From the NCBI GenBank assembly GCA_944389185.1, contig CALXLL010000004.1, positions 4,830 through 68,829 on the forward strand: a DNA stretch of 64,000 nucleotides, given 5' to 3'. The notes beneath the pieces are model-generated. The model worked only from the letters and a program-made list of their open reading frames with translations, was not told the DNA's origin and did not search any database. Shown piece after piece: positions 1 to 34,293 of this stretch (position 1 is the stretch's first letter; every line of letters begins with the position of its first letter). This DNA comes from an uncultured Alphaproteobacteria bacterium (lineage in GTDB: Bacteria > Pseudomonadota > Alphaproteobacteria > Rs-D84). The translations under genes and the position numbers were made by a program.

Positions 1-1432
1 CTTGCTGCCCTTGATATATTTCTGTAATAGCTTGGCGCATAAATTCATCCCATACTTCTTCGGATAAATCGCGACAAGTATCAAGGCTGTTTTCTGCAAA
101 TATTTTTTTATTATTAAGTTCGGCCACCAATAAGCGGTTGGTTTGGTTGGTTAATATGTCGCCTGATAATGAAACCTGAGTTTCTAATTGATAAAATTCA
201 GGACTGTAAATCGGGGCACCAGTATCACGATTTAAGTATCTTCCCGTTATATCCAGACAATGGACATAGCCTTCACCACATGCGCTGTCAGCCGTTAAAT
301 CTTTTCTGACGTTGGCGACACAATCGTTTATAGACGTTGAATTATGTGCATTATAGTTATCCAATCTGGCAACATTCATACTTCTTTCAGCGTCCCTGAT
401 AGAAGCGTTTGCATTATATAACTGCTTGTCCAAAGAATTAATAAGCAAAGAACAATCGTTTTCAATATACATACCGTATGCAGATACAACCATTTTTAAT
501 GTCGCATCAGACGGACAAGAACTTGATATCATTTCTACGCACTGTGCATGAACTGCGTTATATAGCTGTTCACCTGTTAAGTTTGCTATGTTTACGCCCG
601 AAGTTAAATCCGTCGTCGCCCATATTGCATTTATATCCCCCGCAATATCCAAGATGCCTTGTGTTGATAATGATTCAGATTTCGCATTTGATAGAACTTC
701 GCTTATTCCAGCAAGCTGTTGTGCCGCACTGGAAGTATCTTTCGCACCGGCAGCAATAGCTTCACCTTCGCTGGCCGTCATCATAGCTTGAACTTCTTTT
801 GCTGTTTTGTCTATTATGGCTAGATTTAAATTTGCGAAATCTTGCAGTTGACCAGAAGCTTGACTTAGTGCACGTTCCCTGTTTTGTATCTCTGTAATTT
901 TGGACGAGCATATACATCTTCTATAACTGTCGTTTGCCGTGGCACAAAATTGGTCCATACACGTAAAATAAGCATCTCGACATGCGTTATAACCAGTCCC
1001 AAAAGTTGTTGATTCAAGTGTGCTTGTAGATGCCGCCCTGGCAATAGCGTTCGTCGTCTGGGTTATTCTTGGAACAGAAGCAATCCTGGCAATCGCAACG
1101 CTTGGTGAAACCGTTGTTGTCCCCGCACGGGATACTGTATTTGTCGAAGAACGTTGAATTATTGCATTGTTTGTTGATGCCGACCTGGCACTGACATTTG
1201 TTTTTGGTTGCGTTGTTTTGTTCGCGTTATTTGTCCTTGATATAGTCGTGCTGGACCCACGACTTGATACGTTTTTTGATGTCGTTTGTTGCTGTAATAC
1301 GCCAGCCCGAGCCGTTACCGTTGTTGAATTACCGTCTTGTTGTCGTGATATACTATTAGAGTCACGAACAGCAGCTTCGGCCATATGTAAGCCGATAAAA
1401 CAAGCGGTCATAAAGAATAAAATCTTTTTCAT
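1..1432 (-). CDS. Large cysteine-rich secreted protein, paralog D (N-terminal ~477 codons only; runs off the window start)
   Basis: Absent from the ORF track because it has no in-window stop. I translated the minus strand by hand from ATG 1432..1430: MKKILFFMTACFIGLHMAEA|AVRDSNS (signal peptide), then a ~125-aa S/T/N/R-rich tract, then CRDAYFTCMDQFCATANDSYRRCICSS at 902..982. The frame is open to position 1 (checked codon by codon for 1..982). It aligns with the 1057-aa protein at 34294..37467 (CLDITGRYLNRDTGAP vs CLDTTGRYIDPSTGEA; VWDEF in both). Confidence 0.8.
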   Translation of the reverse strand, partial: MKKILFFMTACFIGLHMAEAAVRDSNSISRQQDGNSTTVTARAGVLQQQTTSKNVSSRGSSTTISRTNNANKTTQPKTNVSARSASTNNAIIQRSSTNTVSRAGTTTVSPSVAIARIASVPRITQTTNAIARAASTSTLESTTFGTGYNACRDAYFTCMDQFCATANDSYRRCICSSKITEIQNRERALSQASGQLQDFANLNLAIIDKTAKEVQAMMTASEGEAIAAGAKDTSSAAQQLAGISEVLSNAKSESLSTQGILDIAGDINAIWATTDLTSGVNIANLTGEQLYNAVHAQCVEMISSSCPSDATLKMVVSAYGMYIENDCSLLINSLDKQLYNANASIRDAERSMNVARLDNYNAHNSTSINDCVANVRKDLTADSACGEGYVHCLDITGRYLNRDTGAPIYSPEFYQLETQVSLSGDILTNQTNRLLVAELNNKKIFAENSLDTCRDLSEEVWDEFMRQAITEIYQGQQ

Positions 1433-1771: not shown

Positions 1772-1907
1772 TATATATATTCCTTGAATATGACTGAAAA
1801 TAACAAAGCAATGATATTGTTTATAATAAAAAAAATCAAGATTTTTTTAAGTCTTGCACAATGTGCGCTTGTTTGATATTATTATATAATAATGTAGGTG
1901 GGATTTC

Positions 1908-4100
1908 ATGAATGTTAAAAATATACTAGCAATACTTTGTTTGTTTCCAAGTCTGGCGTTCGGGGCAGAAAGAACGGAAGAAGCCCGCGTGGGTGTAAAT
2001 CGTATGTCACAAGCCGCAGCACGAATGCCGAATATGGTTATCAATACAAGTCAAACATCAACTTCTTCTGTTAATACAAATAATTCTGATGCCGTTCAAG
2101 TTACCAAACCTTCTACTGTGACTGACGGTTCAAGTATAACAAATGAAGTTACAGAAAGTGCTTCAAATACTGATACTTCAAATAGTGTGCAGGAAATCGT
2201 GACCGTTGTTGAAGAAACAAATGGTAATTGTCGCGATGCTTATCGTGAATGTATGGATTTATTTTGTCTTTTGGACGAATCAGAAGGTGCAAGATGTGCT
2301 TGTTCTTCTAATATAGAGCAGGCAAAGCCGTTAATACAAGAAATTCAAGAAATTCAAGCAGAAGCAGATAAATTGTATACCGAAGGCGTAGAACGTGAAC
2401 AGTTAGGTGCAAAAGCATCGTTGGTATTCGGTGAAAGTGAACAAGCAAAAAAATCTTCTGCTGCATCAGGTATAAGCTTTACAGATTGGATAAATAGCGG
2501 AACAGAAGAAGCAGGATTGGGAACCGATTCTGGTATAGGTGATAATTTATATGCTATGGCGGCAGAATATTGTGCTTCAGAATTAGAGGCTTGCGGGGAT
2601 AAAGCTGAAATGGAAGAAATGCTTTATACGCGTCAAATAGTTGCCGATTGTAAGACTTTTGATTCTTACCTTGCTATGCAGAAGACAAACGCCGAAGCAA
2701 ACAAAAGAACCGCCGAAGCCGCAGTTAGAAAAGCAAGACTTGAAATGTTGGATACAACCAATAAATATAATCGTGGAGAGTGTCTGTTGGCTTATCGTGC
2801 TTGTATAGCAGATAAAGGTGGTTGCGGAACTAATTTTGAAAACTGCTTGGATGCAGATTTGTTGGCAAGACGTGCAAATGCTTGTGAAAATGTTTTGGAT
2901 CAATGTATGGCCGTTCGCGATTATGTCTTGCAAGACTGGGAAGCAGAAGCACAAAGTATTTTGGTTGAAGCCGCTAAATATGCAGATAAAAACGCTCGTG
3001 GAACATGCTTGGCCAGAATACAGCTGTGTTTAGAAGACAGTTGTTCTACTAGAACTAATTCGGCTTGTTTGACCGACGTTAACGTAGCGGCTGGTATTTG
3101 CCCTGTTATAGATGAATGTGAAGAAATGATCCCTGGTATTAAAACCGTTGTTAACGATAAATTGGGATATTTAAGAACTCAGTTTTGCCAAAATGATGTG
3201 GATTCTTGCCTGCGTGATAGGTGCGGTGAAAACTTTACGGCTCCGGAGTGCGTAGGTAAAACTTCAGCTGAAATTGCGGCTTTGTGTCCGCAGACTATGT
3301 TCCCGTCTTGTAAGAATGAAACTCAGTTTGACATAATTGTCCAAGCTGTGTTGTTGCAGATGGATTATCAGATGATGCAGGGCTGCGTGAATTATTTCAG
3401 TGAACAGTTAGGGCGCGTTTGCGGAACAGATATGTCTTGTTTGCCTACGGATACTCAGATTACGTCTTTAACAACAGTGCCGGATACGGAAGAGGGTTTA
3501 GCCGCTTTGCGTGAAACCGTTCGTGCAAACTCTCAGATTGCTGTTGACGAGTTCTTCAAACAATTTGAACAAGATAAGACCGTAGCCGCTTGTCAAGATA
3601 GCCAAAAACCAGCCGGTCAGAAAAGTCTGGGTGATAGCGTATTTACTACTGCAAAGTTAATTGCAGAAATTGGTGCGGAAAATAGAGCAATGAGAGAGCT
3701 TGAATCTAAAATTGCAGAGCTGTCCAGACAACAAGATTTAGAAGAAGCAGAACAAAATTGCTATGCTATGTTTAAAGTGGAAACGCCCGATAAGTCAAGC
3801 AAAAATTATAGCTATATAAAGAGTGTGTCTTTTGAACCGTCTTTAAGAAATTGTCACGTTTGTCGCGTTCAGCAAGTTTGCGAAGTCGGCGGTGAAACGA
3901 AAATGGCAGCCGCAATGAAAGGTGCAGCAGGTGGTCTGTCTGCTGGTGCAGCTGCAGGAACAATGGTGACACCAGGTTGGGGAACTGCCATTGGTGCCAT
4001 AGTCGGTGCCGTTGGTGGAGGTTTGTTAACAGGTCTTGGGTCCAGCGGTCAGCAAGAGTTCTGTCAAGAAATTGAATCTTGTGAAGACATAAATATGTAA
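1908..4100 (+). CDS. Large cysteine-rich secreted protein, paralog A (730 aa)
   Basis: AGGTGG Shine-Dalgarno 7 nt upstream of the ATG. Signal peptide MNVKNILAILCLFPSLAFG|AE, S/T/N-rich tract, signature CRDAYRECMDLFCLLDESEGARCACSS (2229..2309). Roughly 36 Cys by hand count, a Gly/Ala-rich hydrophobic segment, and a C-terminal CEDINM. Confidence 0.9.
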   Translation: MNVKNILAILCLFPSLAFGAERTEEARVGVNRMSQAAARMPNMVINTSQTSTSSVNTNNSDAVQVTKPSTVTDGSSITNEVTESASNTDTSNSVQEIVTVVEETNGNCRDAYRECMDLFCLLDESEGARCACSSNIEQAKPLIQEIQEIQAEADKLYTEGVEREQLGAKASLVFGESEQAKKSSAASGISFTDWINSGTEEAGLGTDSGIGDNLYAMAAEYCASELEACGDKAEMEEMLYTRQIVADCKTFDSYLAMQKTNAEANKRTAEAAVRKARLEMLDTTNKYNRGECLLAYRACIADKGGCGTNFENCLDADLLARRANACENVLDQCMAVRDYVLQDWEAEAQSILVEAAKYADKNARGTCLARIQLCLEDSCSTRTNSACLTDVNVAAGICPVIDECEEMIPGIKTVVNDKLGYLRTQFCQNDVDSCLRDRCGENFTAPECVGKTSAEIAALCPQTMFPSCKNETQFDIIVQAVLLQMDYQMMQGCVNYFSEQLGRVCGTDMSCLPTDTQITSLTTVPDTEEGLAALRETVRANSQIAVDEFFKQFEQDKTVAACQDSQKPAGQKSLGDSVFTTAKLIAEIGAENRAMRELESKIAELSRQQDLEEAEQNCYAMFKVETPDKSSKNYSYIKSVSFEPSLRNCHVCRVQQVCEVGGETKMAAAMKGAAGGLSAGAAAGTMVTPGWGTAIGAIVGAVGGGLLTGLGSSGQQEFCQEIESCEDINM

Positions 4101-4137: not shown

Positions 4138-6642
4138 ATGTTTAGTAAAAAAAGTTCTTTAAGACTGTGGGGCTTTATCGGAATATGTGTTTTTGCTAAT
4201 TCGTCTTTTGCGGCCATAACTCAAAGACAATCTGCAATTCAGCAAGGAACAACGGTCAGATCAAGAACTTCTGCAACTGGTTTATATTCTCAGGAATGTT
4301 ATGACGCTTATTATGGTTGTATGGACCAGTTTTGCATACCTGATAACGCTAATGGTGGAAGTTGCACTTGCAGTGATGACAGTATTGAATATGAAAAGCA
4401 GTTTGCCGAAATAGAAGAAATGTTTAACGAAGCCGAACGTATAAGAACAGAAGAAGTAGAAAAAGTTAAAGCCGGCGCAAATGCAGATATAGTATTTACG
4501 GGTGAAAGAAGGTATGATTCAGATGGAAATCTTCTTGGGATAGGCGAAGAAACGGAAGAAGAGGCAAAGGAAAAAGCTCGTCAGGATTTGTTGGCGGTGT
4601 TTAATACCAATTTTTATGAAGAAGAAGACGATGTTTTTTCTTCTATCAGCAGTATAGCAGATTTAACAGGTGACGATTTGTATGCTAGTGCGGAAGAGCT
4701 TTGTCTGCAACAAATGCCAACTGGTTGCGATAACGATTTGACTTTCATAAGACAGTTATATGCAAGACAGATTGTTTCTGATTGTAACGGTTTTGCAAAT
4801 ATTATTAAGAGTAAAAAATCTGAAGCCGAGGCGGCTTTGGCAAGCGCTGAAGCAGAAGTAAGAACGGCTTTGCAGGAAAGTTTTGATTCTGCCAATAAGT
4901 ATGATTTGGGAACGTGTATGGTAGAATTCAAAAAATGTATGTTAACAGATGACGCTTGCGGTGAAGATTGGATTAATTGCGTATCCGTTGTTGCTTCGGA
5001 AAATATGCAGAATAATCAGGCAGAAAGCACGGCAGGAACAAGTATAGCCAGTGCTGATGTCTATGATATTACATCTTCTACGATGGAGATATTAAATTCT
5101 AAACGTCCGATTTGTGAAAGTGTTCTGTCACAATGCGTTGCCGTTCGTGATCAAGTTTGGCCCGCTTTTTTACGTGAAGCGGCACCTACTATTAAGGTTG
5201 CAGAATCTCAGGCTGAATCAAAGTTCCGTCAGTCTTGTTTGACCGAGATTTCAGATTGTATTCAAACGGCGTGTCGTGATGATATTGCTGGTAAAGGCGT
5301 TGCAACTATGGACGCTTGTTTATCCAGACCAGATATGGCGCGCAGTTTCTGTAAAGTAGAAATAGACCCTTGTGAAAGAATGGAACCTTTAATTTGGGGA
5401 TATGTTGTTGATAAGCTGGCTGCTATGCGTGTTGATGCTTGCACGCAAGAAGTAAAAGATTGCTTTACTAACGAGAACCGCTGCGGGCCTAATTTTGAAA
5501 ACTGCATAGGTATGGATTACGAATATATTCATAATATATGTCCTATAGATAGCTTAGTTGTTTGTAAGGCGAACAATCCTAACTTTTCTATGGAAGATTT
5601 AGATTCTATGTTAATGGGTCTGTATTTGAACATAGATAATGCAATGTTAGATAATTGTCAAAATGCAGTTGATAAGAAAATGGCTGAAATCTGCGGCAGC
5701 ACTACTGATTGTAACCGTTTCGCGTCAGATGATACTATTGGGACAGGAAGTTTGCGTTCTCAGAAAGACGGAGATGTTTATAGAGTTACCGGTATGATTT
5801 CGTTTGGCAGTATAAAGATGGGGGATGCATCTGGTTCTGTGACGGACACAATTGATGGTGAAGAGGTAGCATTAGAGCCTGGGCAAATAGGCGTTCAAGA
5901 TTATATAGCTAAAATACGTGAAGCAAATAAGGACGTTCCAGATCAGGCAAGCATAATAACTTCCATTGAAGAAGAGTTGAATAATATAGCTGGGACGATT
6001 AACAGGACGATAGAAATGATATCGCAAGATCCAGAAATTCAGTATTGTGTCAGTGGACGTAATTTATCACAGATTACAGGCGTAGAAGGCCAAAGCACTA
6101 CGGCAAGATTTCCGAATTTATTAAATCAGGTAAAGATGCAGATTGCGATAGCCGCGCTTAGACAAGCGCAAGATAATTATAACGCAAAGTTAAATACGGC
6201 AATAGCCGATGCAACAAAGAATGCATCTACGGACATTGCGCAGTATATGTGTCAAAAAATGGCTCAGAACGGTAGTTATGCTTTGGATATTTATGGCGCA
6301 ACTCCGTCAACGTCTTTAACTGAACCATATGCAATTAGTTATGAAGTAGGAACAGGGTTATCAAATGCAGAGCTTATAAGTGGCGGTGCTGGTGTATTAG
6401 AAATGGGCGGCGCAACATTTAAGAACTCTGGTTATCTTGGTGGCTCGGACATGACAGGTGGTGGTGCAACAAAAGAAACAACGGCAATATTTAATCGTGA
6501 TACAAGAATATGTCATATTTGCACGACTGTTACAACTCAATCTTGTGAAACAACGGGTAGCAGTAGCTGGTTCCATAATAACAGGAACGCTAGTTGTGAA
6601 ACTGTAGTTTCAGAGCCAAAGTGCGAAGACATACAGATGTAA
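4138..6642 (+). CDS. Large cysteine-rich secreted protein, paralog B (834 aa)
   Basis: Starts 37 nt after paralog A on the same strand. Signal peptide ...VFANSSFA|AI; signature CYDAYYGCMDQFCIPDNANGGSCTCSD (4297..4377). Collinear with A (LYA.A.E.C, Y.RQIV.DC, NKY..G.C, CG..F.NC, C..VL.QC.AVRD.V). Ends CEDIQM. Confidence 0.9.
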   Translation: MFSKKSSLRLWGFIGICVFANSSFAAITQRQSAIQQGTTVRSRTSATGLYSQECYDAYYGCMDQFCIPDNANGGSCTCSDDSIEYEKQFAEIEEMFNEAERIRTEEVEKVKAGANADIVFTGERRYDSDGNLLGIGEETEEEAKEKARQDLLAVFNTNFYEEEDDVFSSISSIADLTGDDLYASAEELCLQQMPTGCDNDLTFIRQLYARQIVSDCNGFANIIKSKKSEAEAALASAEAEVRTALQESFDSANKYDLGTCMVEFKKCMLTDDACGEDWINCVSVVASENMQNNQAESTAGTSIASADVYDITSSTMEILNSKRPICESVLSQCVAVRDQVWPAFLREAAPTIKVAESQAESKFRQSCLTEISDCIQTACRDDIAGKGVATMDACLSRPDMARSFCKVEIDPCERMEPLIWGYVVDKLAAMRVDACTQEVKDCFTNENRCGPNFENCIGMDYEYIHNICPIDSLVVCKANNPNFSMEDLDSMLMGLYLNIDNAMLDNCQNAVDKKMAEICGSTTDCNRFASDDTIGTGSLRSQKDGDVYRVTGMISFGSIKMGDASGSVTDTIDGEEVALEPGQIGVQDYIAKIREANKDVPDQASIITSIEEELNNIAGTINRTIEMISQDPEIQYCVSGRNLSQITGVEGQSTTARFPNLLNQVKMQIAIAALRQAQDNYNAKLNTAIADATKNASTDIAQYMCQKMAQNGSYALDIYGATPSTSLTEPYAISYEVGTGLSNAELISGGAGVLEMGGATFKNSGYLGGSDMTGGGATKETTAIFNRDTRICHICTTVTTQSCETTGSSSWFHNNRNASCETVVSEPKCEDIQM

Positions 6643-6650
6643 AAATGTAA

Positions 6651-6680
6651 GGTTCTGGTAATACAGAACCTTTTCTTTTC
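6651..6680 (+). terminator. Rho-independent terminator after the paralog A-B pair
   Basis: ggttctg-gtaata-cagaacc hairpin followed by ttttcttttc. Confidence 0.6.
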
Positions 6681-6710: not shown

Positions 6711-7541
6711 ATGAACACTGATTCTTTAAATCTTGAAAATTATAGCTTTGATACAATCATTGCTTCTTTGGGAAAAATCTTGACCGATTTCGGCTTAAAG
6801 TTAATATCTGCCATCGTTATATTAACTGTCGGAATATGGCTGAGTAATAAATTAGTTAATGCGTTAAAAAAAATTATGAAAAAAAGAAAGCTGGAAGCTT
6901 CTTTAAAAACTTTTATATATTCTTTCGTAAATATATTATTAAAAATATTCGTTTTTATAATCGTTCTTACTACTATCGGCGTTCAAATGACTTCTATAAT
7001 CGCTGTATTAGGCGCCGCTTCTTTGGCAATCGGTATGGCGTTGTCCGGAACTTTGCAGAACTTTGCCGGTGGCGTAATAATTTTACTATTTAAACCATTC
7101 AAAGTCGGCGATTCAATAGAAACTGCAACCGGTGATATAGGCGTTGTTAAGCAAATTACTATATTTACAACAGAGCTGAATACTTTTGATAATCAAGTCG
7201 TGTTTTTACCAAACGGTGCTTTGGCAAACGGCGTAATCACAAACTTATCAAATGGTAAAATTAGAAGAGATGATATAAAATTAAGCTTGGCTTATGGTAA
7301 TAATATACAAAACGTAAGAAAATATATAATGAAAATATTAAACGGTAAACCCGAAATCTTACAATCACCAAAACCAGAGGTCTTTATAGATGCTTTAACA
7401 CCTTTGGCGGTAAGTTTAACGATTCGTTATTGGTGTAATTATTCTGATATGTCGGCTTTGAAAGATGATATTTTAGAAAATATTTATACAGAACTACCTA
7501 AAAAGAATATACATTTTGCTGTCGTTGAAAATAAAAAATAA
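6711..7541 (+). CDS. MscS-family small-conductance mechanosensitive channel
   Basis: 276 aa; N-terminal TM helices, then the MscS pore/beta-domain pattern (GMALSGTLQNFAGGVIILLFKPFKVGD.I...G..G.V..I.I..T.L.T.DN..V..PN). Confidence 0.85.
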   Translation: MNTDSLNLENYSFDTIIASLGKILTDFGLKLISAIVILTVGIWLSNKLVNALKKIMKKRKLEASLKTFIYSFVNILLKIFVFIIVLTTIGVQMTSIIAVLGAASLAIGMALSGTLQNFAGGVIILLFKPFKVGDSIETATGDIGVVKQITIFTTELNTFDNQVVFLPNGALANGVITNLSNGKIRRDDIKLSLAYGNNIQNVRKYIMKILNGKPEILQSPKPEVFIDALTPLAVSLTIRYWCNYSDMSALKDDILENIYTELPKKNIHFAVVENKK

Positions 7542-7603
7542 CTTCCTAATCTTTTTTTTATAGTTTATGTTATAATTACTTAGTAAAACAAAAGGAGTAT
7601 TAT

Positions 7604-7990
7604 ATGAAAAAAATATCTTTGATTGCATTAAGTGGTGTTTTAATGATTGGTGGCGCTTATGCCGGTTTCCAGCAGGGTAATAACACACAACGTGGTGGTT
7701 TCGTCGGTGGACCAGAAACAATCGTTACTGTTTCACAGGTAAAAGAAATGCGCGATGATACGCCTGTTATTATTCAAGGTAATATTCTTCAACGTATGGG
7801 AAATGAAAAATATTTATTCCAAGATTCAACTGGTTCTATAACTGTTGAAATAGACGATGATGACTGGCGCGGTTTAACTGTCACACCAAATGACACGGTT
7901 AAGTTAATGGGAGAAGTTGACGCTGGTTTATTTAATACCGAAATAGATATTGAATCTATTCAAATAGTTCCTGTTGTAAACGCTCAATAA
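7604..7990 (+). CDS. YgiW/YdeI-type periplasmic OB-fold (BOF) stress protein
   Basis: 128 aa; signal peptide. The core TVSQVKEMRDDTPVIIQGNILQRMGNEKYLFQDSTGSITVEIDDDDW matches the bacterial OB-fold family layout. Confidence 0.7.
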   Translation: MKKISLIALSGVLMIGGAYAGFQQGNNTQRGGFVGGPETIVTVSQVKEMRDDTPVIIQGNILQRMGNEKYLFQDSTGSITVEIDDDDWRGLTVTPNDTVKLMGEVDAGLFNTEIDIESIQIVPVVNAQ

Positions 7991-8006
7991 TATACAGAGA
8001 AAAATA

Positions 8007-8033
8007 AAATCCCGCTTTTGCGGGATTTTTTTT
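8007..8033. terminator. Bidirectional rho-independent terminator
   Basis: aaaatcccgc-tttt-gcgggatttttttt lies between convergent genes; A-run and T-run flank a GC stem. Confidence 0.6.
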
Positions 8034-8044
8034 ATAAGCTTCTT

Positions 8045-9115
8045 TTATCTGTTAGTTAATTGCAACTCTATACGACGATTCTTTTGCATACTTTCTTGAT
8101 CTGTTCCAAGCTCTACTGGATATAAATCACCGAAACCACTTGGCACAAGTCTTCGTCTGGATACACCGGCTTTTGCCAATTCATCGGCAACGGCAGTTGC
8201 TCTTAATAAAGATAATTCGGTATTATTCTTATAAGCTTTTGTTCCGCGCATAACTTGCTGTCTGTCCGTATGACCGTCTATACGAATAATCCAGTCTATA
8301 TCTGTAGGTATCTGATTTTCTAAATCTTTTATTACGTTAGCTATTAATCTAAGTTGATTCTTACCTTCTGGTGAAAGAGTATAAGAACCACTGCCGAATA
8401 ATATATCGCTGGATATTATAAATCTATCACCGTCTTGCTGTATAGTCGTTCTGTCACCAAGAGCAGTTTTTACGGCTTTATAGAACTCTGATTGATATTC
8501 TGCCATTTTATTAAGTTCCGCAACTTTATCTGCCAAAGCTTTGTTGAGTTTATTAGACATTTCTACGTATTGAATTTCTTGCTCTCTGGATTTTTCTTCG
8601 GCGGCACTTAATGCGCTTTGTAATTTCAATAATTGTTCTGATAAAGATGCGCGTTGTGCTTCTAATTCCGTCTGTAAGTCTTTTCTGTCTTGTTCAAGTT
8701 GTTTTGTAGCGGCTTTATCTACGTTTGCTTGATTAAGTTGCGTCGTTAGTTCACTTATTTTTGCTTCGTAGTCGGCGATAAGTTCTTCTACGCTGATATC
8801 AACTTCCGCAAGTTCCGTATTTAATGCAAGATTATCTTGCGTCAGATTTTCTAATTCGGCACGCGCAAGTATTAAAAGCCTTTTCGCTTCTTCTTCGTCT
8901 GCCGTCATCTGAGTTATTTTCTGTGCTTGTTCTTCATTAGTCTTTTTCAATTCAGCAATAGCTTTTGTCCCAGAGTCTTTATTAAATACACTGGTCGTGG
9001 TCCATAAAAAGACGAATACTATCAATAAGAAAATAAGTATTATCACCAAGTTAGAGAATAAGTCTACAAAAGCAGGCCATGTGTTTGTTTTTTCTTTAAA
9101 GCGTATGTTCATCAT
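8045..9115 (-). CDS. MotB/OmpA-like peptidoglycan-binding stator subunit with a long central coiled coil
   Basis: 356 aa. N-terminal WPAFVDLFSNL plus a TM helix (MotB-like, with an Asp just before the helix). About 160 aa of heptad-like E/K/Q/L sequence follow. The C-terminal OmpA_C-like domain reads IDGHTD......Y.NN.ELS..RA.AVA..L...GV...RL...G.G...P........Q.KNRRIEL. Confidence 0.8.
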   Translation of the reverse strand: MMNIRFKEKTNTWPAFVDLFSNLVIILIFLLIVFVFLWTTTSVFNKDSGTKAIAELKKTNEEQAQKITQMTADEEEAKRLLILARAELENLTQDNLALNTELAEVDISVEELIADYEAKISELTTQLNQANVDKAATKQLEQDRKDLQTELEAQRASLSEQLLKLQSALSAAEEKSREQEIQYVEMSNKLNKALADKVAELNKMAEYQSEFYKAVKTALGDRTTIQQDGDRFIISSDILFGSGSYTLSPEGKNQLRLIANVIKDLENQIPTDIDWIIRIDGHTDRQQVMRGTKAYKNNTELSLLRATAVADELAKAGVSRRRLVPSGFGDLYPVELGTDQESMQKNRRIELQLTNR

Positions 9116-9138: not shown

Positions 9139-9915
9139 TTAAGATAACTCTGACAAAGTGTTCTTTAAGTCTTGAACGCTTTTGTTTAATTCTTGCGTGG
9201 CTTCGCTGATTTTAGGCAAAATGCTTGCCACTTCTTCCGAAGCTGATACGCGTGTGTGTGATGATAAGTAGTCTTCCAGTTCGTGAAAAATCGTGTTCTG
9301 AGCCAGCTGAACTTGAAGACTTAAAAAACCGACGCTAAGACTACCTGCCAAACCAAGTAAAGAACTGGTAAATGCTGTCGCCATACCTGACAAAGGTTTG
9401 GTAAGCCCCTGTTGCATAGTAAGCATTACTTGTTCGTCTTCAAAATTAAGACCGCCGATTAAATCTGCAAAACCACCAACCGTCATTATTAAACCTAAAA
9501 ACGTGCCAAGTAAGCCTAAAAATATAAGTGTGTTCGTTATATATCTGACCGATTCGCGCGAATCTTCAAAACGAATTAAAATCATATCAAGCATACCTTG
9601 TAAGTTGCCGGCAGATATTTTTTTTGGTCTGGCCTGCAACATCAAAGCGACAGAGCGTAAAAGCTTTGGCGGCAATTTGCCAGAACGACGCCCGCGCAGA
9701 TAATTGCTTAACCATTTATATTCTGGTAGTAATTGAAACATTTCAACAAAGCACAAACCAATTCCGAATATAGTAGTGCCGATAATTATACCGTTTAAGT
9801 ATATATTAGTGACGGCAATTTCCAGAAACTGACGATAAAAAAGCAGAATCCCCGCAAATAGAATAGCGGTAAATAAAGCCATTCGGTTAAGGTTTCTATG
9901 AAATTGGTTTGTCAT
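9139..9915 (-). CDS. MotA/TolQ/ExbB-family proton-channel subunit
   Basis: Multi-TM protein with the family signature GLLGTFLGLI...G and a C-terminal TM pair (ATAFTSSLLGLAGSL). The track start at 9957 is a TTG; ATG 9915 (MTNQFHRNL) has a GAGAG Shine-Dalgarno upstream and is preferred. It sits 23 nt upstream of the MotB-like gene. Confidence 0.75.
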   Translation of the reverse strand: MTNQFHRNLNRMALFTAILFAGILLFYRQFLEIAVTNIYLNGIIIGTTIFGIGLCFVEMFQLLPEYKWLSNYLRGRRSGKLPPKLLRSVALMLQARPKKISAGNLQGMLDMILIRFEDSRESVRYITNTLIFLGLLGTFLGLIMTVGGFADLIGGLNFEDEQVMLTMQQGLTKPLSGMATAFTSSLLGLAGSLSVGFLSLQVQLAQNTIFHELEDYLSSHTRVSASEEVASILPKISEATQELNKSVQDLKNTLSELS

Positions 9916-10064
9916 GTATCTCTCGCTTATATATAAGATGATAGTAAATATAGTCAAAACATGTCAACAATAAAAAGCTTGATTTTTATAGAAAAATATA
10001 CATAATAAGCTTTGTTCCTGCTGATGACATGGGGTCGTCGGCTGTATAAACCAAAGGAAATAAA

Positions 10065-12091: not shown

Positions 12092-12916
12092 ATGACTTGG
12101 ACAATATTGGTTCTAATAGTAGGTATTGCTCTTTACTTGTTTGGTGGCTTGCTATTCAAACAAGACGGTAAAAAACCTTCTACAAAAATCATGCTAGCAC
12201 ACAAATCAATCAAAATGCTTGCTATCATATTGGTTGCAGGCAGCGTTTGTCGTTTGTATGTTCCATACTATATGACTTCTGTAAATCCTATGATTTTACA
12301 AGAAATGATTAATAGCATGCAAGAACAGCAAAACGCAGAAAAAAATAAAGCGATTCGTTCTTTCGTTCGTGACAATACGGACGTTATGGTTGCAGATGCA
12401 CCTGTTATGGGTAAGCAAGACGCTAAGAAAACCATATTTGTCTGGACAGACTTTTCTTGCCCATACTGCCGTCGCGTTCATGGCGAATTAGATCGCGTTT
12501 TAAAGAATCGTGACGACGTTCGCGTTGTTGTTAAGAACTTTTCTATACACGGTCCTTTGTCTGATGGTCCTGCAAAAGCAGTTATCGCAGCTAAATTACA
12601 AAGTCCAGAAAAATCTGCTAAGTTAGTAGATATGTTGATGACTCGCAATTATTACACTCAGGATGATTTGAAAGATCAATCAAAGATTGCTGAAAAAGTA
12701 GAAAAGAACGTTATGAAAATGGCTGAAGAAGCTGGCTTGGATACGGCACAACTGAAACAAGATATGGATGGTGAAGTTGTCGCTCGTGAATTAGCAAACG
12801 TTCGTGATTTGGCTCAACGTTTTGAAATCACAGGAACACCTTTCTTAATCATCGGTGAAGAAGCGTTCCCAGGTGCAATACCTTATGAACAAATCAATAA
12901 TGCTTTGGACAAATAA
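12092..12916 (+). CDS. Membrane-anchored DsbA-family thiol:disulfide oxidoreductase
   Basis: 274 aa; N-terminal TM anchor; thioredoxin-fold active site FSCPYCRR (CPYC); C-terminal ...GTPFLIIG typical of DsbA/Com1-like proteins. Confidence 0.8.
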   Translation: MTWTILVLIVGIALYLFGGLLFKQDGKKPSTKIMLAHKSIKMLAIILVAGSVCRLYVPYYMTSVNPMILQEMINSMQEQQNAEKNKAIRSFVRDNTDVMVADAPVMGKQDAKKTIFVWTDFSCPYCRRVHGELDRVLKNRDDVRVVVKNFSIHGPLSDGPAKAVIAAKLQSPEKSAKLVDMLMTRNYYTQDDLKDQSKIAEKVEKNVMKMAEEAGLDTAQLKQDMDGEVVARELANVRDLAQRFEITGTPFLIIGEEAFPGAIPYEQINNALDK

Positions 12917-17013: not shown

Positions 17014-17190
17014 GAGTATATAAGGTAGCAAGCATTTTTACCCATGTAAAGCAGAAAGTTTTTTGCGCTTTTTTTATTAAAAAAGTGCTTTTTTATAAAA
17101 ATCAAGTCTTTTATTTTAACTAATTTACTTGTCCGCGGCTTTTTAACATCGTCAAAATATGATAAAATGTATATCAAGATAGCGAGAGAG

Positions 17191-18291
17191 ATGGAAAAGT
17201 TTTTAAATAAAATCTTAACAGGCGATTGTGTGGATGTTATGCGCTCTTTACCAGATGCGTCCGTTGATGCGGTGTTTGCGGATTCTCCTTATAATTTGCA
17301 GTTGGGAACGAAAACTTTGTATCGACCAGAAGACCAGACCGCTGCAAGGGCTGTTCGTGACTCTTGGGATTCTTTTTCTTCTAATAAAGAATATGATGAC
17401 TTTACACGTGCTTGGTTGACCGAATGTAAAAGAATTTTAAAACCAGATGGAGCCATGTGGGTAATTGGCAGCTATCATAATATTTTTAGATTAGGGGCAA
17501 TTCTGCAAGATCTTGGTTTCTGGATTCTTAATGATATTGTATGGGTAAAAACGAACCCTATGCCTAATTTTCGTGGAACAAGATTTACTAATGCTCATGA
17601 AACTTTGATATGGGCCACGCCACGAAAAACAGGTAAATATACGTTTAATTATGAAACTATGAAAAAACTTAACGGCGGTAAGCAAATGCGCTCTGACTGG
17701 GATTTGAATATTTGTCTTGGTGAAGAACGTCTTAAAGATAAAGACGGTAAAAGCCTTCATAATACCCAGAAACCACTTGATTTATTACGTCGAGTAATCT
17801 TGGCTTCTACTAAAACCGGCGATATAATATTAGACCCTTTTATGGGTAGCGGCACCACTGCGGTTGCAGCAAAAGAGTTAAATCGCCAATTTATCGGTAT
17901 TGAACGAGAAGAAACTTATGTCCAAGCTGCGTTAAAGCGACTGGAAAAAGTCGTTCCTATGGATTTGTCCGATATAGAAGTATCAGTTCCAAAACGTGAA
18001 GAAATTCGTGTCGCGTTTAGCGAGCTTTTAGAAGCTGGTTTATTGTATGCAGGTCAAACGTTGGTAAGCCCAAAGGGTGAACGCGTCATGATTACCAAAG
18101 ATGGACAATTAGTCCACAGCTTGTATGGCAAGGCTTCAATTCATGTTATGGCGGCAAAAATACAAAAAACAGTCAGCTTTAACGGTTGGGATTACTGGTC
18201 GGCAGAAAAAAGAGATGGTTCTTTGGTCCCAATTGATGAACTTAGAAAGTATATTCGCAGTATTAAACAAGATATTAAAAAGGCCGCTTGA
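17191..18291 (+). CDS. ccrM: CcrM-type N6-adenine DNA methyltransferase (beta class)
   Basis: Collinear with Caulobacter CcrM as I remember it (GDC....M..LP..SVD..FAD.PYNLQLG; WVIGSYHNIFR.G...QDLGFWILNDIVW.K.NPMPNF.GTRF.NAHETLIWA; HPTQKP..LL.R.IL..TK.GD.ILDPF.GSGTT). ATG 17191 gives the same spacing to GDC as CcrM. Motif IV reads DSPY (17281..17292) instead of DPPY. Confidence 0.88.
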   Translation: MEKFLNKILTGDCVDVMRSLPDASVDAVFADSPYNLQLGTKTLYRPEDQTAARAVRDSWDSFSSNKEYDDFTRAWLTECKRILKPDGAMWVIGSYHNIFRLGAILQDLGFWILNDIVWVKTNPMPNFRGTRFTNAHETLIWATPRKTGKYTFNYETMKKLNGGKQMRSDWDLNICLGEERLKDKDGKSLHNTQKPLDLLRRVILASTKTGDIILDPFMGSGTTAVAAKELNRQFIGIEREETYVQAALKRLEKVVPMDLSDIEVSVPKREEIRVAFSELLEAGLLYAGQTLVSPKGERVMITKDGQLVHSLYGKASIHVMAAKIQKTVSFNGWDYWSAEKRDGSLVPIDELRKYIRSIKQDIKKAA

Positions 18292-18417
18292 TATTTTAAA
18301 GCGGTTTTTTTATTGATAAGTTGTTTTTTTATAAAAATACCTTATATATCTATCATACATTAGCGAATCGGGCTTTTGTATGATATAGTTTTATTTGTAA
18401 AATATAAGGATTGTATT

Positions 18418-18999
18418 ATGGCTTTGATACCTATGGTTATTGAAGAATCCCCAAGGGGTGAACGTTCTTTCGACATTTATTCAAGGTTATTACGTGATAG
18501 AATAGTTATGATAAATGGCGAAATTGAACCAAATATGGCAAATATAGTTGTTGCACAACTTTTATTTTTGGAATCTGAAAACCCAAATGCGGATATTTCG
18601 TTATATATAAATAGTCCAGGTGGCGACGTTTCTGCTGGGTGGGCAATTATGGATACTATGCAATATATAAAATCACCAGTTTCAACTATTGGTATGGGTT
18701 TGGTCGCTTCTATGGGCTCTGTGTTATTGGCCGCTGGTGAAAAGGGTAAACGCTTCGTTTTACCGAATACTCAGATAATGATTCATCAGCCTATGGCAGG
18801 TGCTCAAGGTCAAATAACTGATATGGAAATTCGTATGAGCCAATATCAAAAAAATAAAAAAACTTTGATAAAACAGATGGCTCAGTTCACAGGGCGTAAA
18901 GAAAAAGAGTTGTTTGAAGCAATGGAACGCGATAATTGGATGGACCCGAAAGAAGCCAAAGATTTTGGTTTGATAGACGGTATTTTAGAAAAAAAATAA
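18418..18999 (+). CDS. clpP: ATP-dependent Clp protease proteolytic subunit
   Basis: [27 protein letters not shown]; INSPGG; the G.VASMGS active-site Ser context; IMIHQP. ATG 18418 follows AAGGA; the track ORF starts further upstream. Confidence 0.95.
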
Positions 19000-19028
19000 C
19001 TTTTGTCTTATAAAATTGGAAGATTAAT

Positions 19029-20300
19029 ATGAGTGACGATAAAACAAAAATAACTGATGAACATAAACAAGCAGACCAACAGTTCTGCAGCTTTTGCGGT
19101 AAAGCCGTTTATGAAGTAAAAAAACTTATAAGTGGTAGAAACGTTTGCATTTGTGATGAATGTATCAGTCTTTGTAATGATATTATAGCTGACGATAAAC
19201 GCGAAGAAATCAATAAAGACGCAACAAAATTACCTACGCCTTCACAGATTTACAATTTTTTAAACGATTATATAATCGGTCAAGACGCGGCAAAAAAAAC
19301 TTTGGCCGTTGCTGTTTATAATCACTATAAACGTCACAGCGCAAGTTTGTCTTCCGATGTAGAAGTTCAAAAGTCTAACGTCTTATTAATAGGTCCAACA
19401 GGAACAGGTAAGACTTTATTTGCTCAGACGCTGGCAAAGATTCTTAACGTCCCGTTTGCTATCGCAGATGCAACGACCTTGACAGAAGCAGGTTATGTCG
19501 GTGATGACGTAGAAAGCGTGTTAACAAGATTATTGCAAAATGCTAATTTTGATGTAGAAAAAGCAAGTAAAGGCATAATTTATATTGATGAAATTGATAA
19601 AATATCAAGGAAATCTGAAAATCCGTCTTTGACGCGTGACGTTTCCGGCGAAGGCGTTCAGCAGGCGTTGTTAAAGTTAGTAGAAGGAACTGTCGCAAAC
19701 GTCCCAGCCGGTGGGGCAGGGCGCAAGCATCCAGGTGAAGCAACCGTTCAGTTGGATACAAGTAAGATTTTGTTTATTTGTGGCGGAGCCTTTGACGGAC
19801 TGAATAAAATTATAGCTAATCGCACAAACGAAAGAATAGGTATTGGTTTCGGTGCGCACGTGGAATCTAAAAAAGAACGCGAATCAAAAAATTATTTGCA
19901 AGATGTTCAACCGGAAGACTTGGTAAAATTCGGAATTATACCGGAACTTGTTGGTCGGTTGCCGGTAATTACAACTTTGCAAGAGCTTGACGAAAGCGCA
20001 TTGGTAAAGATTTTGACTGAACCTAAAAATGCGATAGTAAAGCAGTATAGTGCTATGCTTGCTATGGATGGTGTAAAGTTGACGATAAAAGACGATGCTT
20101 TACAGGAAATAGCAAAAACTGCAGTTGCAAGGAAAACTGGTGCGCGTGGTTTACGTAGTATATTGGAAAAGATATTAATGCAACCTATGTTTGAAGCCCC
20201 TGATAAACCAGATTTGGTAGAAATAGTAATTGATAAAGATGTGGTTCAGGGTAAGAAGAAACCAATAGAAATCTTTAAAGAATCTAAAAAAGCAGCTTAA
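19029..20300 (+). CDS. clpX: ATP-dependent Clp protease ATP-binding subunit ClpX
   Basis: N-terminal zinc-binding C.FCGK....C..C, Walker [24 protein letters not shown]. Confidence 0.95.
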
Positions 20301-23025: not shown

Positions 23026-23053
23026 AAAGCGGGTTTCAAACCCGCTTTTTTTT
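23026..23053. terminator. Bidirectional rho-independent terminator
   Basis: aaaagcgggtt-tcaa-acccgctttttttt between convergent genes. Confidence 0.65.
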
Positions 23054-23951
23054 ATTTTTGCTTGTCCAAAACGAATCGCCGAAGCTCAGCAATCTTTTTC
23101 ATTTTTTCGTTCTTTAGAATTACGATTGCTCTATTATCTAGCTCTAAACGTATTTCTTCGGGGTAATTATAAATCTTTTTAACCAGAATATTATGTTTAG
23201 TTATAATATTTTTTTGTTCTGGTGGTCTTTGCTGTATGTTGGTGTCGTATATCAACCAAATCGGGGATTCGGGATAATATTTATTTCCAGAAATTATACC
23301 ATGTATGCCAAGAATCGTATCTTCACAGAATAGTTGAACTTCTGTATTTATATGATTCTTTAATATTTTACGACCGTTTATAAATACATCGTTATAAGCG
23401 CCTTCCAAAGTCATTTTGATTGGTTTGATTTCTACGATTATTTTTTGATATGGTTCTTTTTCAGTTTTCGGTAAAGCTTCTACTGTATGTGCGGAAGGTA
23501 TAATTACAGTTGCGTTTTTTGAATCGTGATTATCAATATTTTCTTTGGCTTTTTGAGCTAAATCTTTTTGCTTAACGAAAGTCCGCGTTTCCGAATCATA
23601 CTTCTTAAATCTTTTAGCAAGCTCTTCGTTCAAAGAGTCTTCAATAGGCAAACCTTTCTGTTTACGTCTGTTACGCTCTCTTCTTAAAGTTGCGTCAGAA
23701 TGTTTAGACCAGTCTTTTGTTTTTTCTTTGATATCAATATTTTGTTCTTTGGTTTCCGATGGTTGTTCAGGTGATAGGGTTTTAATTATATCGGTTAATG
23801 CTTTTTTGATAAGGTCTGGTGATAAGTTTGCCGTAATTGCAGAAACTATGTATGACGCAATAGTATTAGAAATAAGTTCTATAACTTCTTCATTATAAGG
23901 GTCGTTAAAAAAATCTTCTATTTGTTTTTTATCTAATATTTTTTTGCTCAT
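23052..23951 (-). CDS. Hypothetical K/E-rich protein (299 aa)
   Basis: Long ORF with no competing ORF. No signal peptide and no motif I recognise. Confidence 0.6.
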   Translation of the reverse strand: MSKKILDKKQIEDFFNDPYNEEVIELISNTIASYIVSAITANLSPDLIKKALTDIIKTLSPEQPSETKEQNIDIKEKTKDWSKHSDATLRRERNRRKQKGLPIEDSLNEELAKRFKKYDSETRTFVKQKDLAQKAKENIDNHDSKNATVIIPSAHTVEALPKTEKEPYQKIIVEIKPIKMTLEGAYNDVFINGRKILKNHINTEVQLFCEDTILGIHGIISGNKYYPESPIWLIYDTNIQQRPPEQKNIITKHNILVKKIYNYPEEIRLELDNRAIVILKNEKMKKIAELRRFVLDKQK

Positions 23952-29670: not shown

Positions 29671-30219
29671 TTAAAATACGTAACGAAGCTTTAAGCGTAA
29701 GTCATAGTGCAATATATCGGGTTCGTTACCTGCCACAGCCGTATAAGCGTCTGGGAAGTATAACACGCGTGCTTCGGCATCAATATTGAAAGGTATAACG
29801 GGCAGGTCAAAAGTTAACCCCAGCATACCTTGATAAATCATATCGTCTTTTGTTTTTATAGATGATAGTTCTTTTAGTTCACCGTCAAAAGCAATACCAG
29901 CACCGACGCCGATATAAGGGTGAATTACTGCGGAAGGTATTTTGAAATAAGCGTTTACCATACCTGTATTCATAAATAATACGTTATTATTCAGATAATC
30001 ATATTCAGCTTCTATGCGGAACAAAGGAATATCCATACCGATAACCGCACCATAAGACTGAGCGTTTTCTGTTACGGTTTGGTCTTGTAAGAATATTGCT
30101 GCGCCACCTGCACCGACCGTTACCCCAATATAAGGGTCTATTAACAGACCGGCGTTTGCACCAGCAGTTAAAAATAAAGTTGAACAAGCCGTTAAAAAAC
30201 CTGCTGTTTTTAATTTCAT
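29671..30219 (-). CDS. Small outer-membrane beta-barrel protein (OmpW/opacity-porin-like)
   Basis: 182 aa; signal peptide; alternating hydrophobic beta-strand pattern; C-terminal ...LRLKLRYVF with a terminal Phe. Confidence 0.65.
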   Translation of the reverse strand: MKLKTAGFLTACSTLFLTAGANAGLLIDPYIGVTVGAGGAAIFLQDQTVTENAQSYGAVIGMDIPLFRIEAEYDYLNNNVLFMNTGMVNAYFKIPSAVIHPYIGVGAGIAFDGELKELSSIKTKDDMIYQGMLGLTFDLPVIPFNIDAEARVLYFPDAYTAVAGNEPDILHYDLRLKLRYVF

Positions 30220-30266
30220 ATTTTGCTCCTTTCTATGATATTATAATAGAAAAAAGAGGCGTATAT

Positions 30267-30791
30267 ATGCAAGAAAATAAACCTATGTTAATAGTAGGTC
30301 TTGGAAATCCTGGGCCAGAGTATGCATTAAACAGGCACAACGTTGGATTTATGGCAATAGATTATTTTGCTGGGGCGGGCGCAAGTTGGAAGAATGAAAA
30401 GAACGCGCTTACGTTCGGGACCGATTTGGACGGTCACAAGGTAATATTTGTAAAACCGCAAACATTTATGAATAACAGCGGTATAGCCGTTCAGGCTTTG
30501 ATGCATTTTTATAAGATACCGCTGGAAAACTTGATTGTGATACACGACGACATGGATATAAAACCGGGCAGTTTTCGTAAGAAGACGGGTGGCAGCAGTG
30601 CGGGGCATAACGGTATAAAGTCCATAGATGCAAGCGTCGGGGCAGATTATCAAAGAATAAGAATCGGTATCGGTCATCCGAAAGATTTTAATTTACAGAT
30701 GTCACCTTCGGATTGGGTAGTCAGCAATTTTTCTAAGGCAGAGCTGGAAACGATATCCAAAGTAATACCAGAAATAAATCTATTTGACTAG
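30267..30791 (+). CDS. pth: Peptidyl-tRNA hydrolase
   Basis: MLIVGLGNPGPEY...RHN.GF motif and HNG.KSI. ATG 30267 was chosen. The 5' extension of the track ORF (30096..) overlaps the opposite-strand OMP gene and is spurious. Confidence 0.9.
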   Translation: MQENKPMLIVGLGNPGPEYALNRHNVGFMAIDYFAGAGASWKNEKNALTFGTDLDGHKVIFVKPQTFMNNSGIAVQALMHFYKIPLENLIVIHDDMDIKPGSFRKKTGGSSAGHNGIKSIDASVGADYQRIRIGIGHPKDFNLQMSPSDWVVSNFSKAELETISKVIPEINLFD

Positions 30792-33088: not shown

Positions 33089-33167
33089 TCTTCTCGCTAC
33101 GTTTATCCTTAGTTTTATACTAGAAAAATAGAACTATTCTTGCAAGGGAAAAATAAGAACATAATAA

Positions 33168-33195
33168 AAAAATCCGGCTGTGCCGGATTCTTTAC
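33168..33195 (-). terminator. Rho-independent terminator after the lipoprotein gene
   Basis: On the minus strand: gaatccggc-acag-ccggattttttt. Confidence 0.55.
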
Positions 33196-34016
33196 CTTTG
33201 TTTGACATTTTGTATGTCTTGCAGTTGTTTATTAACTGTCCAACCGTTTTCAACAAACCACGTGCTGTCTGCTGGTTTGATTAAGCCCGGTTGAAATTGA
33301 AAGTTTCCATAACCTTTGGCTTTACCGTTACCAGCCTTGATGCTGGTTTCAAGAAAGTTTCTTTCTTCTGTAATTCTTTCTGCATCCGTCCAAGATAAAT
33401 ATTCACGTGAATATATAAGATTCAAAAATATATTTTGAATGTCAGGATTTTGTGCATGATATTTTATGGAATCTGGTTGTATTTGACTGTGACGTGAACG
33501 GCCACAATTTAATATAACGTCTTTCCCTGGTATTTTTACTTGTGGTTGATTTACTGTCCAACCTTGTTCAACCATCCACAGACTGTCTTCTGGTGGAATG
33601 CCACCTGGCTGAAAATTAAAACCGCCATATCCAACTGTTTTGGGTTTACCTGCATCAACCATTTCTTGCAGTATTGGTCTTACTTTTGTTAAATCGTCCG
33701 TTGTATATACTAAATAATAGTCTGGTGTCATTGAGTTTAAATATATGGTTTTTACTGTTGAATCGGCGGCTATCTTTGATATGTTTTCTGTTTCTACTTC
33801 ATTCATATTACTAAAGTTAAAACTTAAAATCTCTATCTTGGTCGGAACATAAGGTTCAGTGTCTGGATTGTCTGGAACTTCTGGAACTTCTGGATCTGGT
33901 TTGTCTGGAACTTCCGGAATAGGTTTTTCACATGATGTTAATATTGTCGCCCCAGCCATACATATCATCGGTATCATTCTGCGCAACTTATAGGGTAATA
34001 TTTGTTTCAGTTTCAT
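33192..34016 (-). CDS. Lipoprotein with a Pro-rich linker and two tandem copies of an unknown ~100-aa domain
   Basis: ATG 34016 follows AAGGAAA. Lipobox ATILTS|C; linker PEVPDKPDPEVPEVPDNPD. The duplicated motifs are GYGGFNFQPGGIPPEDSLWMVEQGWTVN and GYGNFQFQPGLIKPADSTWFVENGWTVN. Confidence 0.8.
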   Translation of the reverse strand: MKLKQILPYKLRRMIPMICMAGATILTSCEKPIPEVPDKPDPEVPEVPDNPDTEPYVPTKIEILSFNFSNMNEVETENISKIAADSTVKTIYLNSMTPDYYLVYTTDDLTKVRPILQEMVDAGKPKTVGYGGFNFQPGGIPPEDSLWMVEQGWTVNQPQVKIPGKDVILNCGRSRHSQIQPDSIKYHAQNPDIQNIFLNLIYSREYLSWTDAERITEERNFLETSIKAGNGKAKGYGNFQFQPGLIKPADSTWFVENGWTVNKQLQDIQNVKQR

Positions 34017-34036
34017 TTCGTTTCCTTTTGGTTCGT

Positions 34037-34216: not shown

Positions 34217-34293
34217 TTCTGCTTCTTTTTACTAAGTTTTCTTTTGAATTATATATCAGTATAATTTTTTGTCAAGACCTTTTTGTCAATGGT

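Follow-up and report, generated by a model that had tools for sequence, protein, structure and literature searches.

We have analysed a 64-kb stretch of DNA (64,000 nucleotides, 37.5% GC; the window) from an uncultured alphaproteobacterium of the lineage Rs-D84, in which four large paralogous proteins, designated A to D, share a 27-residue cysteine signature. Paralog A (1908..4100, plus strand) is an open reading frame (ORF) of 730 residues and paralog B (4138..6642, plus strand) one of 834 residues. Paralog C (34294..37467, minus strand) has 1057 residues, and paralog D (1..1432, minus strand) starts with an ATG at 1432 and runs off the window start, leaving its N-terminal 477 residues visible. 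The signature is located at 2229..2309 in A (CRDAYRECMDLFCLLDESEGARCACSS, residues 108-134), at 4297..4377 in B (CYDAYYGCMDQFCIPDNANGGSCTCSD) and, on the minus strand, at 36742..36822 in C (CREVYNNCMDEFCANKDSQLKRCACSS) and 902..982 in D (CRDAYFTCMDQFCATANDSYRRCICSS). These four peptides were singled out by an earlier note on this DNA, and translation on the respective strands reproduces them letter for letter. When the six-frame translation of the window was searched by regular expression, the full pattern C-x6-C-M-D-x-F-C-x9-C-x-C-[SD] was found at these four sites and nowhere else, and the looser C-x6-C-x4-C-x9-C-x-C returned the same four only. Chance alone would give about 1e-8 matches to the full pattern, as calculated from the residue frequencies in the six-frame translation of the window.

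The four proteins are built along similar lines. Each begins with a signal-peptide-like N-terminus (a basic start, a hydrophobic run and a small-x-small site), a start also seen in 102 of 123 full-start representatives of the wider family described below. A polar tract rich in S, T, N, Q, A and R follows, which is shortest in B (about 30 residues), intermediate in A (85) and D (about 120) and longest in C (about 190); among the representatives, 82% of its residues are small, polar or basic. This pre-motif tract is barely alignable among species (approximately 33% identity, against 72-79% for the cores), and its basic character is strong in the C/D type (median net charge +13 to +17), while the folded part is acidic. 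In A, the signal peptide and the 85-residue S/T/N-rich tract are followed by a cysteine-rich helical core and a C-terminal hydrophobic loop, and the chain ends in CEDINM. Paralog B has a short pre-motif tract and ends in CEDIQM; both mature proteins contain 36 cysteines. In C, a signal peptide and a basic S/T/R-rich tract of 190 residues precede the cysteine-rich helical core and a beta-rich, cysteine-rich C-terminal domain, and the mature protein contains 42 cysteines. As for D, a full-length ortholog (locus L006, 4549-7245, minus strand) has 898 residues and a cysteine-rich C-terminal region. Residues 635-693 of this ortholog match residues 25-80 of a 766-residue cysteine-rich exported protein encoded in the window (30788..33088, minus strand; Listeria-Bacteroides repeat, Ephrin_rec_like and TNFR-like matches) over a 59-residue cysteine module with 44% identity (E=2e-9), indicating a second cysteine-rich module common to otherwise unrelated envelope proteins.

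The genes for A and B are separated by 38 bp, and no terminator-like site was found between them. A promoter-like site is present upstream of A (1800..1827, plus strand), a consensus match in which 10 of 12 positions agree, and a terminator-like hairpin (6649..6672, plus strand) begins 7 bp past the stop codon of B. From this arrangement, A and B probably form a co-transcribed operon.

From the alignments, it is clear that the signature does not stand alone. Further anchors downstream, which the earlier note had described as collinear, are indeed invariant columns of the four-way alignment (G..LY..C..C, Y..I..DC and CG..C); in A, the anchor that comes next after the signature reads LY-x5-C222-x6-C229 ... 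Y-x2-QI-x2-DC248 (2547..2651, plus strand). When 138 family members, all drawn from clusters at ⩽50% identity, were aligned, 20 cysteine columns were kept in 88-100% of them, most in ⩾98%. In A numbering, these are Cys108, 115, 120, 130, 132, 222, 229 and 248 in a first group, Cys292, 306, 313 and 333 in a second, Cys367, 374, 398 and 404 in a third, and Cys427, 439, 448 and 468 in a fourth. All 20 are present in A, B and C, and in D those that lie within the window. The signature contributes an odd set of five, which the three cysteines of the LY..C-x6-C..DC anchor bring to eight for the first helical bundle. The proposed division into A/B and C/D subtypes also stands, since average-linkage clustering of the 138 members separates these two first, and core identity is 37% for A-B and 33% for C-D but 24-25% across the split. 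Thus, the signature is a non-random, collinear mark of a four-member paralog family with two subtypes. One refinement is that the 27 residues do not amount to a domain of their own but form the start of a conserved core some 400 residues long, in which 20 cysteines are invariant.

A second refinement concerns repetition. A module C-x6-C-x4/6-C-x6/9-C, as found by regular expression, recurs in two to four copies per protein, starting at residues 108, 292, 367 and 427 of A, residues 54, 260 and 435 of B, and residues 216 and 632 of C. Apart from the signature itself, the four-Cys copies in A are R1 (CLLAYRACIADKGGCGTNFENC, 2781..2846, which includes the CG-x5-C anchor), R2 (CLARIQLCLEDSCSTRTNSAC, 3006..3068) and R3 (CQNDVDSCLRDRCGENFTAPEC, 3186..3251), and those in B are CMVEFKKCMLTDDACGEDWINC (4915..4980) and CTQEVKDCFTNENRCGPNFENC (5440..5505), all on the plus strand. 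The second copy inside C (CREIGKNCMIQACKSISGNFGLC, 35506..35574, minus strand) carries CREIGKNCMIQAC, which echoes CREVYNNCMDEFC of the signature. With hhalign, the statistics are convincing for the R1-R3 pair only, which aligns in register at E=4.6e-4, and R2 aligns in register with the other modules, if weakly (E 0.03-0.16). These results are suggestive of the C-x6-C-x4-C-x9-C portion being one copy of a module repeated within each protein, and of the signature as its best-kept copy.

AlphaFold2 models were obtained for residues 95-730 of A (from an alignment of 122 sequences) and residues 205-1057 of C (84 sequences), with a mean predicted local distance difference test score (pLDDT) of 78 and 79, respectively. 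Both contain the same core of long helices, in A often with pLDDT >90; in C this core is succeeded by the beta-rich, cysteine-rich C-terminal domain, and in A by a small three-stranded sheet around a low-confidence glycine-rich loop. The signature takes the same place in these two independent models, as the helix-loop-helix opening of the long-helix core, in agreement with the earlier proposal that it sits at the boundary between the disordered tract and the helical region, the latter being confidently modelled from this point on. Helix 1 presents cysteines at i, i+7 and i+12 together with invariant Y, M, D and F residues, and is followed by a nine-residue loop, a C-x-C turn, an invariant Ser and a helix 2 of 35-40 residues. 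In the model of A, Cys108 to Cys120 belong to helix 1, while Cys130 and Cys132 lie in a short helix after the loop, with the long helix 2 next. The C-terminal loop enclosed by the small sheet of A is glycine-zipper-like, and its segment of residues 672-706 (3921..4025, plus strand), a possible membrane anchor with a weak Pfam match and low pLDDT, is the sole hydrophobic stretch of the protein besides the signal peptide. The A C-terminus scores 16 bits against Gly-zipper_Omp (E=0.01; cut-off 25), and weak glycine-zipper matches of 13-17 bits against the same 25 occur at residues 666-735 in A and in six of ten A orthologs.

The earlier note had allowed that the pattern might turn out to belong to an already named domain, or to occur at random frequency in unrelated cysteine-rich proteins. 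Neither is the case. A scan of A, B, C and D against Pfam-A and NCBIfam at E⩽1 gave only the below-threshold glycine-zipper match and noise, and nothing passed the thresholds of Pfam, NCBIfam, PHROGs or PADLOC for the four paralogs, one full-length D ortholog, five long representatives or ten A orthologs. The best match of the profile to PDB sequences was an unrelated nuclear receptor (E=0.007). Foldseek searches of the two models against the PDB returned best E values of 0.67 and 1.2, with template-modelling (TM) scores ⩽0.12, and that of the A model against BFVD a best E of 0.26, with no match at E<0.1. As for random frequency, the sub-pattern C[RY][DE][AV]YxxCMD was found in 573 stretches of a collection of 185,579 species, each represented by one genome, and 557 of these (97%) encode relatives. 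We also found no account of the family in the literature on Rs-D84 cysteine-rich or CX6C periplasmic proteins.

The family is large. A profile of the four cores matched 846 clusters at 50% identity among 1.84 billion representatives, with E⩽1e-30 for 528 of the clusters, and every source name bore only the label 'hypothetical protein'. At least 961 homologs of A were present in a collection of 5.8 billion proteins, none with a name or a Pfam domain. As a family pattern, the signature can be written C-x6-C-[ML]-D-x-[FLMI]-C-x9-C-x-C, placed immediately behind the polar N-terminal tract, and all four window proteins conform to it. Among the matches listed, the strict pattern is found in 122 of 148 new 50%-identity representatives, and 134 of the 148 keep the cysteine spacing; of the 26 without the strict pattern, 12 retain the spacing with substitutions, and most of the others are N-terminally truncated fragments, with matches that begin inside the profile. 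Locus names, identities and gene order were taken from the best 80 of the 557 genome loci. These are gut metagenome-assembled genomes (MAGs), from human, chicken, ruminant, rabbit and other hosts. With one exception, the sources are named as Alphaproteobacteria, Rickettsiales, Pseudomonadota or Candidatus Enterousia MAGs, and judged from these names, the family appears confined to Rs-D84-like Alphaproteobacteria. The exception (CAVGNU010000011.1), filed as 'Bacteroides fragilis isolate H07647-L1_cleanbin_000047', holds an Enterousia-type D/A/B cluster with 79% identity to A, and is probably a mislabelled or mis-binned MAG. No relatives were detected among the 2.9 million viral contigs of IMG/VR, and a viral origin was rejected on this ground.

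Gene order is likewise preserved. At least 69 of the 80 species loci show the order and strands D(-) A(+) B(+), and the A-B tandem is kept in the 80 as classified by motif order and strand with regular expressions. Even a distant relative with a GC content of 53.7% (JGI 3300027984) keeps the order D / infA / A / B, with secG inserted; since the same neighbourhood thus occurs at 53.7% and at 37.5% GC, the cluster predates a large GC shift within the lineage. Across the 80 species, the median identity to the window protein is 92% for IF-1, 79% for the A core, 73% for the B core, 72% for the D core, 72% for an OmpA-family neighbour, 63% for BOF and 55% for MscS, and the tails and C-terminal regions vary more than the cores. 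These values indicate strong purifying selection on the cores, and such conservation favours a conserved structural or essential role over rapid antigenic or arms-race evolution. Horizontal transfer was considered and rejected, since the GC content at third codon positions of all four genes is within the range of the window and synteny is kept across species.

Several observations bear on the state of the cysteines. Cys434 and Cys460 appear together in 65 of 67 cases (phi 0.97). An insert cysteine (alignment column 553) and the equivalent of Cys409 behave likewise (phi 0.92), and the A/B-specific Cys299, 326, 379 and 387 are always present as one set. In addition, the number of cysteines in the mature protein is even in A, B and C and in 99 of 123 representatives. 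Also encoded in the window is a DsbA-like thioredoxin that is membrane-anchored and has the active site CPYC (12092..12916, plus strand; Pfam DSBA E=4.5e-21; FSCPYCRR, with an N-terminal hydrophobic segment). It is a candidate oxidase for the disulfides of the family, from genomic context and not as a proven partner. Paired gain and loss, even counts and the DsbA-like gene thus point to structural disulfides, and the pairings discussed below are predicted from these sequence features.

Other genes of the window clearly serve a diderm envelope, including those for LptB/LptC, two OmpA-family proteins, an SLT transglycosylase, a Pom-like porin, a DUF3078 barrel, a lipoprotein and a subtilase. Paralog C itself lies within a run of envelope and secreted-protein genes (29671..42661), which comprises a weak Surface_Ag_2-like barrel, the 766-residue cysteine-rich protein, a 213-residue ORF, the DUF3078 barrel, the subtilase and a 284-residue probable lipoprotein with an LTSC lipobox-like motif; the porin, a member of the Protochlamydia outer membrane protein family (E=1.7e-10), adjoins C. 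In one of the loci from other genomes (L081, a termite- or gut-type 'Rickettsiales bacterium'), rpoA and rplQ are separated by the insertion of an RVT_1 reverse transcriptase gene (7265..8329 of that locus, plus strand) and several ORFs, and a family member of the B type lies just downstream. Elsewhere in the window are an N6/N4 DNA methyltransferase with a C-terminal RAMA domain (17167..18291, plus strand), which we take to be CcrM-like; a Fic/DOC-family protein (48119..48841, minus strand); and a divergent second ClpP-like ORF (51199..51861, minus strand; E=2e-8) beside the canonical clpP-clpX pair at 18376..20300. Six ORFs of 185-299 residues have no Pfam match (9139..9957 and 23052..23951 on the minus strand; 39238..39879, 50531..51178, 55954..56511 and 58493..59296 on the plus strand).

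Taken together, these data establish the signature as real and as highly specific for a large family of unannotated proteins, exported, cysteine-rich and mostly helical, in Rs-D84-like Alphaproteobacteria. For the signature itself, a structural role is probable, as a clasp whose disulfides lock the first helical bundle. In the mechanism that we propose, its five cysteines and the three of the LY..C-x6-C..DC anchor would pair into four disulfides, made in the periplasm by the DsbA-like oxidoreductase, with the invariant Ser capping the N-terminus of helix 2 and three further invariant residues (Y, M and F) belonging to the core. The finished rods would then constitute a periplasmic or outer-membrane-associated scaffold of the envelope, in which A may be anchored through its glycine-zipper loop and is probably partnered with the co-transcribed B, and to which C and D would contribute basic flexible tails and beta-rich C-terminal domains. 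That the proteins are indeed structural components of the envelope is possible, if somewhat short of an even chance. We therefore put forward only tentatively, as a reading that comes close to such a chance, the overall view of the signature as the N-terminal clasp of lineage-specific Sec-exported, disulfide-stapled, mainly alpha-helical envelope proteins.

A number of points weigh against this view. Every glycine-zipper match falls below the threshold set by Pfam; the N-terminal module copy aligns with the others in register but with weak statistics (E 0.06-0.16 with hhalign); and the invariant cysteines yield no covariation signal. The codon usage of the four genes also carries no sign of the high expression expected for a major structural protein, although the codon adaptation index against ribosomal and glycolytic genes spans just 0.60-0.79, with A and B in the mid-range and C and D low, and so tells little about expression here. 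The gene neighbourhood, in a genome of less than 1 Mb, is weak functional evidence. Moreover, Rs-D84 bacteria are reported to be without respiratory chains (PMC12306168), and the usual DsbB-quinone route for the re-oxidation of DsbA would therefore be lacking.

Other explanations of the same observations differ mainly in what the rods and the cysteines are for. If the proteins acted as surface adhesins or in contact with a partner, the signature would keep its part as a structural clasp; the disulfide-stapled rods would be stalks that project the cysteine-rich or beta-rich C-terminal domains and basic flexible tails from the cell surface, and would attach the bacterium, which is metabolically dependent, to another cell or to host mucus. 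The beta-rich C-terminal domain of C would suit such a function, as would the wide divergence of the C-terminal regions among representatives with a constant core. Ephrin_rec_like and Listeria-Bacteroides-repeat domains are typical of surface proteins, and it is with a protein bearing both that the D ortholog shares its 59-residue cysteine module. In addition, the four paralogs amount to about 3,500 residues, or about 1% of a genome below 1 Mb, and an obligately symbiotic or parasitic life has been proposed for Rs-D84 / Enterousia, which have unexplained membrane proteins (PMC12306168). However, none of the four proteins contains an autotransporter barrel, a lipobox or a known sorting signal, and no outer-membrane secretion route was identified; A and B are without a distinct C-terminal binding domain, A ending in a membrane-anchor-like loop; and the conservation of the cores resembles that of housekeeping envelope proteins rather than of fast-evolving contact proteins. 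We consider the adhesin function, the main rival, rather unlikely. Distinctly unlikely, in our estimate, is a further reading in which the four paralogs would jointly build a helical lattice or attachment apparatus, cross-linked by disulfides and so far undescribed, in the Rs-D84 envelope, with A and B as membrane-anchored heterodimeric rods and C and D bearing the basic tails and binding domains. If true, such a lattice would be a lineage-specific 'exoskeleton' or contact organelle underpinning the partner-dependent life of these sub-1-Mb gut bacteria, and would show a new fold made from a repeated heptad-spaced cysteine module.

The cysteines, such as those of C-x6-C...C-x-C, could instead coordinate Zn, Cu or Fe-S centres, making the proteins buffers or carriers of periplasmic metals. 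Their very high cysteine content, the likeness of C-x-C and the closely spaced cysteines to some metal sites, and the A/B-specific set of four are in line with metal binding, and in an anaerobe with PFOR the case for oxidative folding is weakened. Nevertheless, the cysteines vary pairwise, as seen with 434/460 and the column 553/409 pair, and not in threes or fours; their mature counts are even; the alignments show no conserved His alongside the cysteine columns; and no metal-binding family was matched in Pfam. Cysteines at i and i+7 on long helices suit staples between helices, and a DsbA-like oxidase is encoded nearby, so that metal binding appears very unlikely. There is even less room for a known or trivial feature, be it part of a named domain or an agreement between cysteine-rich ORFs that arose by chance or through low complexity. 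It is true that the core CMD[QLE]FC[ALI] alone arises by chance and that a search with it and another pattern returned 83 unrelated matches from viral contigs. Against this are the four occurrences in the window for about 1e-8 expected, the 97% of genome-wide pattern matches that are homologs, the 846 clusters of the profile search, and the absence of any match in Pfam, NCBIfam, PHROGs, PADLOC, PDB sequences or Foldseek; this explanation is thus extremely improbable.

The interest of the family lies partly in its hosts. Candidatus Enterousia, which belongs to the uncultured order Rs-D84, has genomes of approximately 0.75-1.0 Mb, is fermentative and without respiratory chains, and has been proposed to be partner-dependent (PMC12306168). 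Rs-D84 bacteria are widespread and uncultured in human, ruminant, bird and termite guts. Since the four proteins are large, syntenic and strongly conserved, and take up about 1% of the genome, they are likely to be central to the envelope or to partner contact. With a definition that combines the signature, 20 invariant cysteines, four orthogroups and the synteny D / infA / A / B, the family provides a specific lineage marker, a target for metaproteomics and cryo-electron tomography, and a candidate Pfam entry. Structural biologists may also take an interest in a heptad-spaced cysteine module that is repeated on long helices and for which the PDB offers no neighbour. The family further bears on oxidative folding in the periplasm, which in this anaerobe would have to be extensive and yet proceed without a respiratory chain.

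Among known systems, the CHCH proteins offer a parallel in the layout of the motif, being helix-loop-helix proteins with regularly spaced cysteine pairs that are stapled by disulfides after import into the mitochondrial intermembrane space (for a review, see PMC12114033). Like the twin CX9C and CX3C motifs, the signature places spaced cysteines on a helix-loop-helix that would be stapled after export into an oxidizing compartment, the periplasm or one derived from it. The spacing is different, however, with x6 (a heptad), an extra cysteine at +12 and a C-x-C, that is, C-x6-C-x4-C-x9-C-x-C; the proteins are bacterial and Sec-exported, with 700-1100 residues and 28-42 cysteines, unlike the small two-disulfide CHCH domains; and neither a CHCH Pfam match nor a twin CX9C was found in them. 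Spectrin/alpha-actinin-like rods and phage tape-measure proteins, which are elongated bundles of long helices, were the top non-significant Foldseek neighbours (E⩾0.26, TM⩽0.19), but they are without disulfides, and no homology is indicated. The hydrophobic C-terminal loop of A, rich in G-x3-G, gives weak, below-threshold matches to models of glycine-zipper outer-membrane proteins (PF13488 / PF13441; the Rickettsia 17-kDa antigen, SlyB-like lipoproteins). It is a small insert in a protein of 730 residues, lies outside the signature, and has no counterpart in B, C or D.

The Helicobacter Hcp proteins (Sel1-like) are exported alpha-helical repeat proteins in which one disulfide fixes each repeat. 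The present family shares with them the export, the alpha-helical make-up and, apparently, the presence of repeats in a bacterial protein; its helices are much longer, though, and its module is a different one of four to six cysteines, and it gave no Sel1/SLR match in Pfam at E⩽1 and no Foldseek match to PDB chains. The chlamydial OmcA and OmcB are cysteine-rich proteins whose disulfide cross-links stiffen the envelope of small-genome, partner-dependent bacteria. The likeness to these is one of function only, since the Pfam and NCBIfam scans indicate no sequence relation, and OmcB is beta-rich whereas the family here is helical. In a further departure from the chlamydial case, Rs-D84 bacteria keep peptidoglycan and rod-shape genes (PMC12306168). 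The family described here is new and unnamed, while its general kind, that of exported, disulfide-rich structural proteins, is a familiar one.

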